From: Comamonadaceae bacterium PBBC1
Lineage (GTDB): Bacteria; Pseudomonadota; Gammaproteobacteria; Burkholderiales; Burkholderiaceae_C
Reading direction: 5' to 3'
Assembly (NCBI GenBank): GCA_002256145.1
Contig: NKIP01000001.1
Span: 130,090-194,089, forward strand
Length of the DNA: 64,000 nucleotides
Both the position numbers and the translations under genes were made by a program. The notes beneath the pieces were generated by a model. That model ran no database searches. It was not told the DNA's origin and was given only the letters and a program-made list of their open reading frames with translations. Positions 2,682 to 20,223 of the stretch are shown here, one piece after another; positions within the stretch are counted from its first letter, which is position 1, and the number at the start of each line of letters is the position of its first letter.

Positions 2682-2780
2682 GTGAATGCTTTAAGGGTGT
2701 TGAACGGTGCGGACATTCTGGAGCCGGATCGGATCAACAAACACCCTAAAATTCAATCCATTGTTAACCTGAGATCAACA

Positions 2781-3692
2781 ATGGAACCACGCCTGCAAGC
2801 GGCCGATCTGGGCTTTTTTTCTGCACTGGCCATGTCGGGCAGCCTGAGCGCCGCTGCGCGTGAACTGCGCATCACCACGGCCGCCGTGAGCAAGCGCCTG
2901 TCGCACATGGAGTCGCGCCTGGGTGTTCCCCTGGTCAACCGCACCACCCGCCGCATGAGCCTGACGGTGGAAGGCGAAACCATGCTGCGCCACGCCCGCA
3001 GCATCCTGGCAGAGATGGCCGATCTGGAACAGCAGTTGGGCGCCAGCCGCTCCACGCCCAGTGGCCTGCTGCGCATCAACGCCACGCTGGGCTTTGGGCG
3101 CAGCCACATCGGCCCGCTGATCAGCCGCTTTGTGCGGCAATACCCGCAAGTCGATGCACAGCTGCAGCTGTCGGTGGACCCGCCCTCGCTGAGCGACGAC
3201 GCCTTTGATGTGTGCATCCGCTTTGGTCCGCCGCCCGACACCCGCGTCATTGCACGCAAGATCGCCGACAACCAACGCCTGCTGTGTGCCTCGCCCGCCT
3301 ACCTCCAGGCGCATGGCGAGCCCAAAACTCCGGCCGAGCTGGCCCGGCACAACTTCATCAGCATCCGCCAAGGGGGCGAAGCCTATGGCGTGGTCAAACT
3401 CACACGCGGCAAACAAGGCCCGACCGAGACCATCAAAACCCGCGGCAACCTGACCACCAACGACGGCAGCATCGCGGTGCAATGGGCGCTCGATGGTCAC
3501 GGCCTCTTGCTGCGGGCCGAATGGGACGTCCGCCAGCACCTGGCCAGGGGCCAGCTGGTGCAAGTGCTGCCACAGCACCACACGCCCGATGCAGACATTT
3601 ATGCGGTCTACCCCGCGCAGCACAAATCGGCGGCGCGGGTGCGGGCGTTTGTGGACTTTGTGGCCGAAGCGTTCAGGCCCGCCAGGCCTTGA
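2781..3692 (+). CDS. LysR-family regulator (DmlR-like)
   Basis: C-terminal part of track ORF 1242..3692: MEPRLQAADLGFF...GSLSAAARELRITTAAVSKRL HTH plus LysR substrate domain; divergent from the dehydrogenase. Confidence 0.9.
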   Translation: MEPRLQAADLGFFSALAMSGSLSAAARELRITTAAVSKRLSHMESRLGVPLVNRTTRRMSLTVEGETMLRHARSILAEMADLEQQLGASRSTPSGLLRINATLGFGRSHIGPLISRFVRQYPQVDAQLQLSVDPPSLSDDAFDVCIRFGPPPDTRVIARKIADNQRLLCASPAYLQAHGEPKTPAELARHNFISIRQGGEAYGVVKLTRGKQGPTETIKTRGNLTTNDGSIAVQWALDGHGLLLRAEWDVRQHLARGQLVQVLPQHHTPDADIYAVYPAQHKSAARVRAFVDFVAEAFRPARP

Positions 3693-15035: not shown

Positions 15036-16117
15036 CCACTTCACCCCAGCTTCGCATCCAAGTTCAGCTCGACCGCAGCGACTTCGCACTGAAGGTGGAC
15101 CTCACCCTGCCAGTCAACGGCATCACGGTCTTGTTTGGGCCGTCCGGTTCAGGCAAAACCACCCTGTTGCGCTGTGTGGCCGGTTTGGAGAAGGCCCAGG
15201 GTCTCATCTCATTCGGCCATGAAATATGGCAAGACAGTGAAAAACGACTTTTCAAGCCCACCTGGCAGCGTCAAATGGGTTATGTCTTTCAGGAAGCCAG
15301 CCTTTTTGAACACCTGAATGTCAAGCAAAACCTGCACTTTGGTCTGCGCAGGGCTGGTAAAACCAAACAAACGCAGGTTCTTGACGCGGCATTGGAGCTG
15401 CTGGGCATTGGCCACCTACTCGAGCGTGGCGTCACCACGCTGTCAGGCGGTGAGCGTCAGCGTGTGGCGATCGCCAGGGCCTTGGCCACACAACCTCAGC
15501 TGCTCTTGCTGGACGAACCGCTGGCCTCACTGGATGTCGCTCGGCGCAAAGAAGTCTTGCCCTGGCTGGAGAGGTTGCACGCAGAACTGAAGATCCCGAT
15601 GCTGTATGTCACCCACTCGGTGGACGAACTCGCTCGCTTGGCCGATCAAGTGGTCATGCTCGATGGTGGCAACGTCCGATCTTGCGCACCGATGACCGAA
15701 GCCATGGTGTCGCAGGACATGGCCCTGGCCATCGGCGAAGAGGCAGGTATGGTGACCTTGGGCCGGGTCATGGAGCGCAACCCAGAGGACCACATGGCAC
15801 AAATTCAATGGGGTGGCGGAATCCTTTGGGTGCGCGACCAGGGCGTTGCAGTGGGTCAAACCGTTCGTGTCCGCATCCTGGCCCGCGATGTCAGCCTCGC
15901 ACTCTCCAATCACGAGGACTCCACCATACAAAACCGTCTGCAGGGCCTCATCGAATCGATAGATTCAGACGCCCATCCTTCGCAAGTTGTCGTGCGCGTG
16001 CGTTGCGGTCAAGCATTGATTCTTGGACGTGTCACACGCAGATCGCTGCACCACCTGGCGCTTCGACAAGGTGCTTCGGTTTGGTGCCAGGTGAAATCCG
16101 TCGCACTCATTGTCTGA
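15032..16117 (+). CDS. modC: Molybdate ABC transporter ATPase
   Basis: GPSGSGKT, LSGGERQ, LLDEP; C-terminal TOBE domain. Confidence 0.95.
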
Positions 16118-16266
16118 GGCAAAGTCGGGTTCAACCCACACAACGCCGACTCGATGGATGGCCACTGTGTGGTGCACTCCAAGGCGCAAACATGACAGCC
16201 ATGAAACTCTGAACAAGGCAAAGTAGCACCTGACCCTCTCACCGATGCCCACGACCAGGACACGCC

Positions 16267-17460
16267 ATGAACGACACCGCCCTCCTCCCACCTGCCCTAG
16301 AAGCCATCCGTGCGCACGAAGCCGAGATGGTGGACATCCGCCACCAGATCCACGCCAACCCAGAGCTGGGATTTCAAGAAAACGACACCAGTGACCTGGT
16401 GGCCGCACGGCTGGAACGCTGGGGCTGGGAGGTGCACCGGGGTTTGGGTGGCACGGGCGTGGTCGGCACCTTGCGTGCGGGCACCAGCACACGCCGCATC
16501 GGCCTGCGTGCCGACATGGACGCCCTGCCGATTGCCGAAACCTCGGGCAAGGCCTGGGCCAGCAAGGTGTTTGGCAAGATGCACGCCTGTGGCCATGACG
16601 GCCACACCGCCATGCTGCTGTCTGCGGCACGCCATCTGGCGGCCACCCGACACTTCGACGGCATCGTGCACGCCGTGTTCCAGCCCGCCGAAGAGGGCCT
16701 GGGCGGTGCCCGCAAGATGCTCGAAGACGGTTTTCTGGACTTGTTCCCCTGCGATGCCATGTTTGGCATGCACAACGGCCCCGGCATTCCTGAAGGCCAA
16801 TTCATGGCCGTGCCCGGTTGTGCCATGGCCAGCGCAGACACCTGCATCATCACCGTCAAGGGCGTGGGCGGCCATGCAGCCTTTCCGCACAACGCGGTCG
16901 ACCCCATCCTCGTGGGCTCGGCCATGGTCATGGCCTTGCAAAGTGTGGTCTCGCGCAATGTGCCGCCCCTGCAAACCGGCATCATTTCGCTGGGGGCATT
17001 TTTGGCAGGCGACGCACCCAATGTGATCCCGGGCACAGCCGAGCTGCGGCTGAGCGTGCGGGCCATGCAACCCGAAATTCGCGACCTGCTGGAGCGGCGT
17101 ATCCACGAAATCGCCAACGCCGTGGCGCAAACCTATGGTGCAACGGCCGATGTGAACTACATGCGCCGCTACCCGGTCCTCATGAACGACCCTACCCAAA
17201 CCGCCTTCTGTCTGGACCTGGTGCGCGACTGGCTGGGCGAGACTGGTCTGGTGCCCAAGCCCGAGCCCGTGCCCGCCAGTGAAGACTTCGCCTTTTTCCT
17301 GGAAAAGGTGCCCGGCTGCTTCATCAACATCGGCAACGGCGTGGGCAGTGTGGGCGGCTGCATGGTGCACAACGCAGGTTATGACTTCAACGACCGCATC
17401 TTGTCGACCGGTGCCACTTACTGGGTCAAACTGGTGGAGCGCTGGCTGGCCAAGGTGTGA
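16267..17460 (+). CDS. M20D amidohydrolase (hippurate hydrolase-like)
   Basis: RADMDALP, MHACGHDGHT, FQPAEEG, SEDFAF. Confidence 0.9.
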   Translation: MNDTALLPPALEAIRAHEAEMVDIRHQIHANPELGFQENDTSDLVAARLERWGWEVHRGLGGTGVVGTLRAGTSTRRIGLRADMDALPIAETSGKAWASKVFGKMHACGHDGHTAMLLSAARHLAATRHFDGIVHAVFQPAEEGLGGARKMLEDGFLDLFPCDAMFGMHNGPGIPEGQFMAVPGCAMASADTCIITVKGVGGHAAFPHNAVDPILVGSAMVMALQSVVSRNVPPLQTGIISLGAFLAGDAPNVIPGTAELRLSVRAMQPEIRDLLERRIHEIANAVAQTYGATADVNYMRRYPVLMNDPTQTAFCLDLVRDWLGETGLVPKPEPVPASEDFAFFLEKVPGCFINIGNGVGSVGGCMVHNAGYDFNDRILSTGATYWVKLVERWLAKV

Positions 17461-17473
17461 AGCGATCCCACCG

Positions 17474-17552
17474 TCTGCTTCAATTCGCCGCACTGCACAG
17501 CCCGGAACACGCGGCAACGGGGTGCTCGTCCGCCCCCCCTGAACACTGGGGG
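17474..17552 (+). repeat. ~79-bp dispersed repeat, copy 1 (orphan copy of the deaminase leader)
   Basis: Aligns by eye with 20098-20174 (CACTGCACAGCCCGG..ACGCGGCAACG.GGTGCTCG..CCCC.TGAACACTGGGGG). Confidence 0.85.
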
Positions 17553-17593
17553 TCAAGGCGTTTGTAGACTTTGTGGCCGAGGCATTTAAACCT
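17552..17593 (+). pseudogene. LysR C-terminal helix remnant
   Basis: Encodes VKAFVDFVAEAFKP versus VRAFVDFVAEAFRP at the end of the LysR at 2781-3692 (12/14 identical); no upstream part of the gene. Confidence 0.65.
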
Positions 17594-17774
17594 CTTGTCA
17601 TGGGCAAGAACAAGCCAATCCAACCCTGCGTCGCGTCGCGTGAGTTTGAGAAAATTAATCCATTATGGTTAAATTCAAATCCACAGCGGTGCAGATCAAC
17701 AGGATCCATTTGCCGCCATTGAAGTCAATAACCTGCACATGCCTTGTTGGCGTGGCAAGTCAACGCCAAGTGTC

Positions 17775-19997
17775 ATGAGAACGCCTCCTTCTTTTCTGCA
17801 TATTTCAGTGCTTTCTGCGATCGGTGCGCCCCTGCTCGTCATCGCTCAAACCTTGCCCGATGAACGGTCAACGCCGCAGGAGCAGTCAACGGAGACGGTC
17901 ACAGTGTCTGCCCGGCGTGCGATCGAGCAGCGTTTTGATGCGACAGGATCACTGGTGGTGGTGGAGCGCAAAGACATTGCCGCCTTGGGCGCATTTTCTG
18001 TCGTGGATGTGCTGCGGCAGCTGCCGAGTGTGCAAGTCACGCCCAACGGGCAAGGGGGCGTTGAGATTCGCATGCGCGGCATGGAGGCCAGTGCAACGCA
18101 ATTGCTGATTGACGGTCAGCGAGTCAGCAGCGGCAAGAGTTCCCTGCCACTGGACCAGCTGCCCTCTGAGCTGATCGAGCGCATTGAGGTGGTGCGCGCA
18201 CCGACGGCTGAATTTTCTGGGGCCACCGGGGGCACACTGAACATCGTCTTGCGTGCCGCCACCGTGAAGCGCGAAACCACCTTGCAACTGACCGACAACC
18301 ATGTCTGGGGTCAAAATGCGGGGCAGCTGTACTTCTCGCAGTCAGGGCCCTTGGGCACCGACCCCGCTGCCCTCAAAGCCGATGCGGCATCGGACACGCC
18401 ACCCGTCAAACCCTGGACTTACTTTGTCGCGGCCAGCCGCATCGATTACTTGATTGGCTCCGATATCCAGCGACAAACCCTGTCAGATGGGCAGCTCACT
18501 TCGACAACCGATACCGCGGGCCGCTACCGCCGCAGCGAGTCCATGCTGCTTCCCAAGGTGAGTGGGCGCATGGGCGCCAGTGACCAGCTCACCCTGCGCG
18601 CGACCTTGAGCCAGACCGAATTTGACGGCACCGCCCTGGCCTCTGGAAGCCTGTGGCGCGACGGTACGCACTATGCGCTCAACAGCCAAGACATGAACGA
18701 CTACCAGCGCCATTACCTGCAAGTGGCAGCGGACTGGACGCACCGCTTTGACCGCAGCAAGCTCGACACCACACTGCATGGCGCCCGCAGCAACTACCGC
18801 CTGAATCGCCAGGGCATCGTGCAGTCCCAGGGCAGCCCCAATTCCGACTACGCCTTGTCGGACGAGCAGCGCGACAGGCAGTGGACGCTCAAATCCAAAC
18901 TCACAGGCACCGACAGCCCCTTGCTGTGGTCGACCGGGGTGGAGCTGGATACGCTGAGCCTGGACGCATTGACCCAGAACACCGACACCCTGCGTGGTAG
19001 CAAGCGCGTGGAGATGGGCGCAAAGCTGCAACGCCAAATCATCTGGGGGCAAAACGAATGGGCGTTACCGGGCAAAACCACCCTGACGGGCGGTTTACGC
19101 TCCGAAACGATGATCCTGACCAGTGCCGATGCCAGCGTCATCCCTGAGCGGCGCATGCACTTCATCCAACCCTCGCTGCATACACGCACCGCCATTGGCA
19201 ATGACATGCAGTGGCGTTGGAACCTTGCCCGGGTCACACGCAACCCCGCTGTTCGCGATTTGTTTAACCGCACCAGCCCCAGTGTGGGGGGCAACAGCAT
19301 CACCAACCCGGACAACGCAGGCAACCCCGACCTGCGTCCCGAAGTGGCATGGAGTCTGGACACCGGGCTGGACCAACGCCTGAGTGAGCAAGGTCATTTG
19401 GGCTTGAACCTGTTTGTGCGCCAGCTCAGCGACACACTGGCCACCTTGGTGACGCCGATCAATGGCCGCTGGTTACAAACCCGCGCCAATGTGGGCGATG
19501 CGACGGTCTGGGGCTTGGAAGCCGATGTCAAAACGGGACTGGCCTGGGCGGGTTTGGGGCGGGACTGGACGCTGTCGAGCAACGCCAGTGTGTTGCAGTC
19601 GCGGATGACCAGTGGCCCCAGCGAGGGCAACCGCATTCCTGGCCAAGCACGCTACACCGCCAGCGTGAACGTGGCCAAACCCCTGCGCAGCACAGGCGGT
19701 TTGTTTGGTGGCGTCACCTTATCGCTGACGGGACCGACCCAACTCAACACCTCTGCCGGCATCACCGGACGAGACCACGCCCGTGCGGCGCTGGATGTTT
19801 ACATCGGACGCGTGCAGCCGACCTGGGGTTACTGGCGCGTGGGGGTGTACAACATCGGCAACGCCCGCTTTAACCGCGATCGCCACTACGCTGACGGGAC
19901 AGGCGAAGTCTGGCAAGACCGCTCCAGCATGGCACTCACACCCCGGGTGTACCTGTCGGTGGGGACGCGATTTTGTGGCGCGTTCAAGCCTTGTTGA
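17775..19997 (+). CDS. TonB-dependent outer-membrane receptor (plug plus beta-barrel), with a 7-residue extension past the usual terminal Phe
   Basis: Signal peptide, ETVTVSA TonB box, plug motif IERIEVVRAP..GGTLNIV, GNPDLRPE; ends VGTRF-CGAFKPC. Confidence 0.88.
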   Translation: MRTPPSFLHISVLSAIGAPLLVIAQTLPDERSTPQEQSTETVTVSARRAIEQRFDATGSLVVVERKDIAALGAFSVVDVLRQLPSVQVTPNGQGGVEIRMRGMEASATQLLIDGQRVSSGKSSLPLDQLPSELIERIEVVRAPTAEFSGATGGTLNIVLRAATVKRETTLQLTDNHVWGQNAGQLYFSQSGPLGTDPAALKADAASDTPPVKPWTYFVAASRIDYLIGSDIQRQTLSDGQLTSTTDTAGRYRRSESMLLPKVSGRMGASDQLTLRATLSQTEFDGTALASGSLWRDGTHYALNSQDMNDYQRHYLQVAADWTHRFDRSKLDTTLHGARSNYRLNRQGIVQSQGSPNSDYALSDEQRDRQWTLKSKLTGTDSPLLWSTGVELDTLSLDALTQNTDTLRGSKRVEMGAKLQRQIIWGQNEWALPGKTTLTGGLRSETMILTSADASVIPERRMHFIQPSLHTRTAIGNDMQWRWNLARVTRNPAVRDLFNRTSPSVGGNSITNPDNAGNPDLRPEVAWSLDTGLDQRLSEQGHLGLNLFVRQLSDTLATLVTPINGRWLQTRANVGDATVWGLEADVKTGLAWAGLGRDWTLSSNASVLQSRMTSGPSEGNRIPGQARYTASVNVAKPLRSTGGLFGGVTLSLTGPTQLNTSAGITGRDHARAALDVYIGRVQPTWGYWRVGVYNIGNARFNRDRHYADGTGEVWQDRSSMALTPRVYLSVGTRFCGAFKPC

Positions 19998-20097
19998 GTC
20001 AGGTGGGTTTTGCCAAGTGATGGGCTTCAGAAGAATAGGCCCGTTCATCTTCAGGTCTTGCGAAAACGCCAACGCGCCAGCGCTTCACGAACGGGCA

Positions 20098-20174
20098 TCT
20101 GCTTAAAATCGCCCCACTGCACAGCCCGGGACGCGCGGCAACGTGGTGCTCGCCCTCCCCATGAACACTGGGGG
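20098..20174 (+). promoter_or_regulatory. ~79-bp repeat copy 2: -10 box (TAAAAT 20104-20109) and structured 5' leader of the deaminase
   Basis: Repeat of 17474-17552; contains a GCAA-capped hairpin and a CCCCA/UGGGG hairpin; 50 nt upstream of the ATG at 20224. Confidence 0.65.
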
Positions 20175-20223
20175 AAAGGGGATTCGGCCGCGACTTGTTT
20201 CACCCCTTGCCCAGGACAAGTCC

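Follow-up and report, generated by a model that had tools for sequence, protein, structure and literature searches.

A short sequence occurs twice in the stretch of DNA analysed here (64,000 nucleotides (nt) of Comamonadaceae bacterium PBBC1, contig NKIP01000001.1; hereafter the window), once behind a gene for an M20 amidohydrolase (copy 1) and once directly 5′ of a gene for 8-oxoguanine deaminase (copy 2). This raises the question of what the repeat is and, if it is a regulatory RNA, what it senses. An initial annotation of the sequence had proposed a duplicated structured leader and riboswitch candidate for an oxidized purine, or else a small dispersed repeat. The repetition itself is real: local alignment matches 17474–17552 with 20098–20174, with 87% identity over the first 63 nt. 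For copy 2 the riboswitch proposal is strongly supported by comparative data, which point to a structured cis-regulatory leader; for copy 1 it falls. We consider it very likely that the motif in copy 2 is a functional cis-regulatory RNA, and put at about 0.55 the probability that it binds a metabolite directly, that is, that it represents a riboswitch of an undescribed class.

A conserved leader of 8-oxoguanine deaminase genes

The motif is confined to a single genomic context. Among 101 Limnohabitans genomes, 44 carry it, each in one copy, and in all 43 Limnohabitans loci that were fetched it lies just 5′ of the deaminase orthologue. The upstream neighbour is variable in this genus: the M20 gene in six, a TonB-dependent receptor gene in one and other genes elsewhere. 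When one genome per GTDB species was scanned with the search pattern, 97 stretches matched. The 86 that include the full GCACAG... prefix are genuine and belong to Limnohabitans, Rhodoferax, Curvibacter and unclassified Comamonadaceae metagenome-assembled genomes (MAGs); 84 of them are followed, 24–73 nt downstream, by an open reading frame (ORF) starting M-x-T-L-L-I, and in the other two the fetched stretch ends before the deaminase start. The remaining 11 stretches lack the prefix, lie in coding DNA of unrelated taxa and were set aside as chance matches. A metagenome scan, limited to forms without G at column 89 and thus excluding the main Limnohabitans type, gave 31 matches, all before the same gene family (start call unclear in three). 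Across the genome and metagenome instances the motif lies 3′ of a −10 box and 7–86 nt from the start codon, in three promoter contexts. All genuine instances reside in Comamonadaceae-type sequences, before 8-oxoguanine deaminase homologues. The initial annotation had asked whether matches in relatives would be specific to purine-catabolism genes; they are found exclusively 5′ of 8-oxoguanine deaminase genes, a steady association with genes for one metabolite.

Searches beyond these lineages returned little. The covariance model gave nothing convincing elsewhere among 150 genera of the family, where one family-level match (G086) lies in coding DNA, and only 26–30-bit matches, none near a deaminase, among 150 genomes across the order. 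Occurrence outside Comamonadaceae was dropped because the order-wide matches are weak and away from deaminases. One contig labelled as an Akkermansia muciniphila MAG (L145, CALQKH020000003.1) carries a Limnohabitans-type leader and deaminase; the label probably reflects misbinning or contamination behind the public entry.

The conserved element is an RNA motif of ~84 nt and a candidate aptamer. In copy 2 it spans 20118–20192 on the plus strand, on which all leader elements described below also lie, and covariance model R1 gives it 99.6 bits (E 4e-20). The consensus reads N-GCACAGCCCG-N7(..A.GC.)-CGGC-AA-CG.GGY-GCUCG-CC[variable hairpin]GG-AUUCG-GCC.CG. About 50 core positions are invariant among the instances found, an apparent invariance that is inflated by search patterns fixing 25–28 of them. 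Core identity is 84–96% where the ORF DNA is 69–75% identical, the core value again being raised by a pattern that fixed 25 of 49 positions. Three loci found by BLAST alone (L063–L065) have the same invariants.

Transcription of the leader and its start site, predicted at about 20114–20118, are inferred from the −10 box TAAAAT (20104–20109), which is present where the initial annotation had seen it and, in most Limnohabitans loci, precedes GCACAG by 9 nt. A consensus promoter scan missed this box because its −35 element is weak. The motif begins 6–21 nt past the −10 box, which reads TATGAT (6 nt before the motif) in the type B lineage and CAAAAT (21 nt before) in the type A leaders of a Rhodoferax lineage. 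A sigma-54 promoter within GGCAAC-N-TGC was also considered and rejected, its spacing being one base short by eye.

The fold has a short 5′ helix, a long-range helix and a variable hairpin. Positions below are alignment columns (alignments A3 and A5); in copy 2, column n corresponds to 20111+n up to column 28 and to 20110+n for columns 30–46. The 5′ helix S1 pairs 20118–20120 with 20133–20135 (columns 7–9 with 22–24). Its pair 7–24 covaries, being A-U in 29, U·G in 29, U-A in five and unpaired in eight of 71 sequences; most exceptions belong to type B, in which the very short distance from the −10 box may leave column 7 untranscribed. Pairs 8–23 and 9–22 are an invariant G-C and C-G, and the only break in 9–22 is found in copy 1. 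Next to S1, GCCCG and CGGC (20124–20139) would form an invariant 3-bp helix for which RNAalifold predicts pairs 13–28, 14–27 and 15–26. Because all its positions are invariant, covariation neither supports nor refutes it. Together with S1 it could make an H-type pseudoknot.

The long-range helix P1 pairs CGUGGU (20142–20147) with GCCGCG (20187–20192), the latter reading GCCUCG in type B and Rhodoferax leaders. Pair 32–91 is C-G in 67 sequences, U-A in two and U·G in one, pair 33–90 is G-C or G·U, and pair 37–86 is U·G in 61 and C-G in 10. Metagenome variants, read by eye, add U-A at 34–89 in four distinct forms and a change from C-G to G·U at 32–91. Of 70 distinct sequences, 69 contain P1 in their minimum-energy fold, and RNAalifold independently predicts both P1 and P3. 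Within P1, the junction strands GCUCG (20148–20152) and AUUCG (20182–20186) flank the variable hairpin P3 (20153–20181). Both strands are invariant in every instance found, GCUCG (in part fixed by the search pattern) also in the three BLAST-found loci; AUUCG is destroyed in copy 1 and in two decayed leaders (L183 and L184). P3 takes 70 distinct insert sequences, every one of which folds into one hairpin; these hairpins average 9.6 bp, and their mean z relative to shuffles is −2.5. Its basal pairs covary: 45–78 occurs as CG, UG, UA and AU, and 46–76 as UA (35), CG (25) and AU (1). The sense strand of P3 is stabler than the antisense strand in 50 of 70 inserts; this difference and the G·U pairs place the structure on the mRNA strand.

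The model of S1, P1 and the base of P3 is 96% paired, as opposed to 29–42% for slid controls, and none of 500 shuffles reached its covariation score. Copy 2 is thus part of a conserved, structured, sense-strand domain of the 5′ untranslated region (UTR), its start site taken from the −10 box, in which covarying helices (P3, P1 pair 32–91 and S1 pair 7–24) stand beside conserved unpaired nucleotides (GCUCG and AUUCG).

Several observations weigh against this fold, in addition to the inflated invariance. The core is mostly invariant, so that covariation is carried by few pairs. Pair 34–89 of P1 is loose, occurring as UG, CG, UA and AU and being unpaired in 26 of 71 sequences. The kin sequences are phylogenetically clustered, which makes the shuffle statistics overstate significance and their support less than decisive. 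Finally, single-sequence folding energies are no better than those of shuffles (z −0.8 to +1.5), and the evidence for structure is therefore comparative rather than thermodynamic.

Most of the helices first proposed for the leader do not belong to this conserved fold. The GCAC/GUGC helix does not covary and would contain A·C in 10 of 71 sequences; the GCAA-capped hairpin likewise lacks covariation, its pair 24–34 being unpaired in 41 of 71. The bases of both are mostly invariant, with a covariation score below that of every shuffle, and they may represent alternative (for example, ligand-free) conformers. A suggested alternative pairing of AAGGGG with CCCCTT is particular to this genome; in most relatives the sequence at this place is CACACC. 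In the minimum-energy fold, codons 2–3 (ACCACG) pair with the P1 5′ strand; this pairing was discarded as coincidence because the wobble base varies without compensation.

The type A leaders of Rhodoferax (for example, L071:5037-5180) carry additional elements: a 5′ hairpin, GCGC-AUA-GCGC, ahead of the motif, and a CCACC...GGUGG hairpin inserted between P1 and the Shine–Dalgarno (SD) sequence and flanked by duplicated GAC(A)GGAG boxes. They share the block ACUUGUUU(C/G)AC with Limnohabitans.

Possible switching and ligand, and rival explanations

The sequences downstream of P1 suggest how the leader might act on translation. In copy 2, GACUUGU (20192–98) pairs with ACAAGUC (20216–22), forming the hairpin at 20192–20222 that the initial annotation had described beside the ribosome-binding site (RBS); the AGGA SD sequence lies at 20213–16. 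Both arms are kept in nearly all Limnohabitans-type leaders, a class comprising 44 of the distinct leaders analysed, and one locus (L060) shows a compensatory change from U-A to A-U. In Limnohabitans the hairpin covers the spacer between the SD sequence and the AUG and abuts P1, with one nucleotide in common; no other lineage has it. The GCCUCG form of the P1 3′ strand, found in type B and Rhodoferax leaders, includes CCUC, an anti-SD-like sequence able to pair with GAG, GGAG or GAGG downstream. Forcing the aptamer to fold raises the predicted accessibility of the RBS in several type B leaders (for example, from 0.29 to 0.63).

A possible mechanism can be drawn from these features. The invariant GCACAGCCCG...GC.CGGC would form the short 5′ helix, possibly a small pseudoknot, and P1 (CG.GGY with GCC.CG) would enclose a 5×5 internal loop, GCUCG/AUUCG, followed by P3. 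Ligand binding would stabilize P1. In Rhodoferax-type leaders, P1 formation would then sequester CCUC and free the RBS, giving an ON switch, whereas in Limnohabitans the separate hairpin abutting P1 would cover the SD–AUG spacer. An ON polarity is tentatively favoured, by analogy and on the grounds that the presumed inducer is degraded by the gene product.

Other results argue against such a switch. The expression platform differs between lineages. When the aptamer was forced in 77 leaders, predicted RBS accessibility changed inconsistently, by a mean of +0.02, rising in 26 and falling in 14. The complementarity of the anti-SD duplex is weak in type B (TATGAT) leaders, with a mean z of −0.47, and a U-tract after P1 in some of these leaders would instead point to an OFF terminator.

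The U-tract is a run of 5–7 U that begins 1–2 nt past the P1 3′ strand in eight type B leaders (L083, L137, L143, L085, L148, L225, L227 and L250). There, the P1/P3 domain could double as an intrinsic terminator, implying the opposite polarity or a dual mechanism.

To place the motif among known RNAs, we turned to Rfam 15 using cmscan, as the initial annotation had suggested. The whole window gave zero matches at the gathering threshold, and the element with its surroundings, run for four lineages at E ≤ 10 or E ≤ 5, likewise gave none. The purine riboswitch family (RF00167, covering guanine-I, adenine, 2′-deoxyguanosine, xanthine-II and 8-oxoguanine) was not matched at E ≤ 10 in the window region and three other lineages, and the supported fold lacks the three-way junction. 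The covariance model of xanthine-I (NMT1, RF03054) gave no match at E ≤ 10 either. These results agree with the earlier view that the element lies outside the xanthine (NMT1), purine and guanidine riboswitch classes, and the known RNA families were rejected as its identity. A description of the motif was not found in literature searches.

The closest functional parallel is the 8-oxoguanine riboswitch, a guanine-I variant lacking U47, which in Paenibacillaceae is always tied to 8-oxoguanine deaminase genes (Hamal Dhakal et al., PNAS 2023, PMC10556655). Both are cis-acting leaders found exclusively 5′ of these genes, both have a narrow taxonomic range, and ON logic is plausible for both. The two are unrelated in architecture and sequence: the present candidate has neither a three-way junction nor kissing loops, occurs in Betaproteobacteria rather than Firmicutes, and has a platform that appears to be translational instead of a terminator. 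Xanthine-I resembles the motif as a proteobacterial leader of oxidized-purine metabolism built as a helix rod around conserved internal loops. Its conserved sequences differ, and it controls transporters and dioxygenases, whereas the present motif is found with the deaminase only. Two 3-bp helices in the 5′ domain could fold into a compact pseudoknot, as in the small H-type pseudoknot aptamers of preQ1-I (RF00522). Unlike them, the motif has no A-rich tail, is ~84 nt long and contains the additional P1/P3 domain; its pseudoknot is also a matter of inference, as the pairs are invariant.

What, then, might the leader sense? The likeliest ligand is 8-oxoguanine or a close oxidized purine, given the analogy with the Paenibacillus 8-oxoguanine riboswitch and the presence of a separate guanine deaminase in the genome. 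The latter (contig C34:102869-104092, outside the window; TIGR02967, 480 bits) is a bona fide guanine deaminase, which makes the leader-controlled enzyme a specialized paralogue and not the sole guanine deaminase of the cell. By this analogy, 8-oxoguanine itself is a tentative assignment. Equally speculative is the wider proposal of a second 8-oxoguanine-sensing class (‘8-oxoG-II’), unrelated in structure, that would have evolved independently in freshwater Comamonadaceae and would switch the deaminase on.

The alternatives to direct metabolite binding fit parts of the same evidence. A structured leader recognized by a protein or small RNA, for instance by the deaminase itself in autoregulation or by a regulator dedicated to this RNA, would account equally well for the conservation, the covariation and the gene association, and the heterogeneous platforms and unclear polarity are compatible with it. 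We nonetheless regard it as unlikely: some 50 invariant positions around an internal loop and a 5′ helix or pseudoknot are typical of small-molecule pockets, no gene for a candidate RNA-binding protein co-occurs while the neighbouring genes vary, and a metabolite-sensing RNA acting on this gene offers a direct precedent (PMC10556655).

A 5′-UTR structure that senses nothing, such as an mRNA stabilizer or a device for a fixed translation level, is a rather improbable explanation. It would be consistent with the fact that computation demonstrated no switch and with the single nucleotide that the RBS-adjacent hairpin of Limnohabitans has in common with P1. Stabilizing hairpins, however, do not need ~50 invariant unpaired or junction nucleotides, and in half of the genus the leader has been lost or replaced along with the whole regulatory region, as would be expected of a regulator.

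It is more doubtful still, and in our view quite improbable, that the conserved block is a DNA operator for a transcription factor such as an upstream-encoded LysR-type regulator. In several Limnohabitans species an intact LysR gene does end 30–60 nt 5′ of the leader promoter, and this gene may be a co-regulator of the locus. Yet the conserved block extends over ~85 nt 3′ of the −10 box, the hairpin sequence is free while its pairing is kept, G·U pairs occur on the sense strand only, and in most other Limnohabitans, as in Rhodoferax-type lineages, the leader lacks an adjacent LysR gene.

The idea of a small dispersed repeat, either a miniature inverted-repeat transposable element (MITE) or a repetitive extragenic palindrome (REP)-like sequence, draws on the two copies lying ≤2.6 kb apart and is refuted by copy number and context: the degenerate 38-nt core pattern hits two sites in the window, the two copies, and has no hit in 100 shuffles; in the whole 4.59-Mb assembly, BLAST and a pattern search with up to three mismatches find only these two; relatives carry one each, at the same locus every time; the 86 genome and 31 metagenome instances share one position before one gene family; and the second copy is accounted for by a local recombination scar.

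A metabolite-binding leader would have consequences beyond this locus. If ligand binding is confirmed, the motif would be a new riboswitch fold and only the second RNA sensor to be tied to 8-oxoguanine, which marks oxidative damage to nucleic acids. Unrelated RNA structures would then control one enzyme family in distant phyla, an instance of convergent sensing of a product of oxidative damage, here in Limnohabitans and Rhodoferax, which are dominant bacteria of freshwater plankton. The motif is short, has clear boundaries and is represented by ~100 natural variants, making it ready for in-line probing and crystallography.

Copy 1 and the turnover of leaders

Copy 1 had been put forward as a second functional element. 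Its sequence indicates a truncated, decaying duplicate instead. It scores 43 bits against the covariance model, whereas none of the 70 genuine instances falls below 60.8 bits. Because it ends after P3, neither the AUUCG junction nor the P1 3′ strand is present, and the invariant GGAUUCGGCCGCG of the 3′ third is missing. It also carries two substitutions at invariant columns: G to A at 22, which breaks the otherwise universal C9–G22 pair, and C to T at 43. Beyond 17552, comparison with the 3′ flank of copy 2 gave a local score of 23, reached by three of 300 shuffles, from a 14-nt out-of-register match. Homology past this point was therefore rejected; the adjoining DNA is a fragment of a LysR gene instead.

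This fragment, the 3′ end of a LysR-type regulator gene at 17557–17600 (+), is a rearrangement scar. Its first 30 nt (17557–17586) match the last codons of a LysR-family gene (...AFVDFVAEAF...), the LysR identity resting on Pfam PF00126 and PF03466. A full-length LysR paralogue lies elsewhere in the window (2742–3692, with the matching end region at 3644–3692). In many Limnohabitans genomes the matched LysR gene ends just 5′ of the leader or of the M20 gene, and in a locus of the G336 type (L162) it lies 5′ of the receptor gene.

The flanks of the scar match two different gene orders. Positions 16000–17536 are 96% identical to genome G378, where modC, the M20 gene, the leader and the deaminase gene follow each other without a receptor gene; positions 17660–20315 are 96% identical to genome G336, where receptor gene, leader and deaminase gene are present and copy 1 is absent. 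In six relatives the M20 gene is directly 5′ of an intact leader. Copy 1 is therefore the truncated resident leader: a segment made up of a LysR gene end, the TonB-dependent receptor gene, a leader and the deaminase gene recombined into an M20–leader–deaminase locus, leaving behind copy 1 and the scar. The P3 loop UGAACAC is common to copies 1 and 2 and differs from that of G378, which suggests that the parents were close relatives or that the copies were homogenized.

Decay and replacement of the leader are also seen elsewhere in the genus. The deaminase is present in 89 of the 101 Limnohabitans genomes, and about half of the orthologues lack the leader, including proteins with 90–95% identity. 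In 39 orthologues for which BLAST found no leader, the covariance model detects no motif either, apart from two decayed versions. These score 22 bits (L183, genome G355) and 46 bits (L184, genome G315), are changed in the otherwise invariant CGGC, GCUCG and GGAUUCGGCC, and precede intact deaminase genes 90–92% identical to the gene in the window; they look like natural loss-of-function intermediates. Leaderless deaminase genes are usually arranged back to back with a glycerate kinase gene (DUF4147 and MOFRL) across ~55 nt, and otherwise adjoin other genes. The co-occurrence of leader-bearing and leaderless close relatives indicates exchange of the entire regulatory region, a pattern seen with alternative regulators. 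This patchy distribution of intact, decayed and truncated leaders and leaderless orthologues offers a natural experiment on the gain, replacement and loss of a regulator.

The leaderless upstream regions (L169–L208) have conserved sequences of their own. The glycerate kinase intergenic region contains a conserved near-palindrome, GGGCAAATTGTGCCC, and a second leaderless clade has AGAGTGTAGTG...CAATTTCTTCGTGCAAAAT in its place. Both are probably protein operators that replace the RNA leader.

Genes of the locus

The gene order of the locus begins with modABC (assigned by NCBIfam and Pfam), followed by the M20 amidohydrolase gene at 16267–17460 (+; TIGR01891, 338 bits). Copy 1 (17474–17552, +), which extends from the promoter through P3, and the LysR scar separate this gene from the TonB-dependent receptor gene at 17775–19997 (+). 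The receptor has Plug and β-barrel domains, and a promoter-like site of its gene lies at 17646–17675. Copy 2 follows, with the repeat match at 20098–20174, and the 8-oxoguanine deaminase gene then occupies 20224–21651 (+; ATG at 20224), scoring 673 bits against a cut-off of 532 for the NCBIfam equivalog NF006055.

Downstream, a 247-residue ORF at 22657–23400 (+) has an Arg/His/Gln-rich translation and belongs to no Pfam family. It is probably an antisense shadow of the minus-strand gene at 22388–23383. If so, the tblastn matches of this ORF beside the deaminase in relatives would reflect the minus-strand gene.

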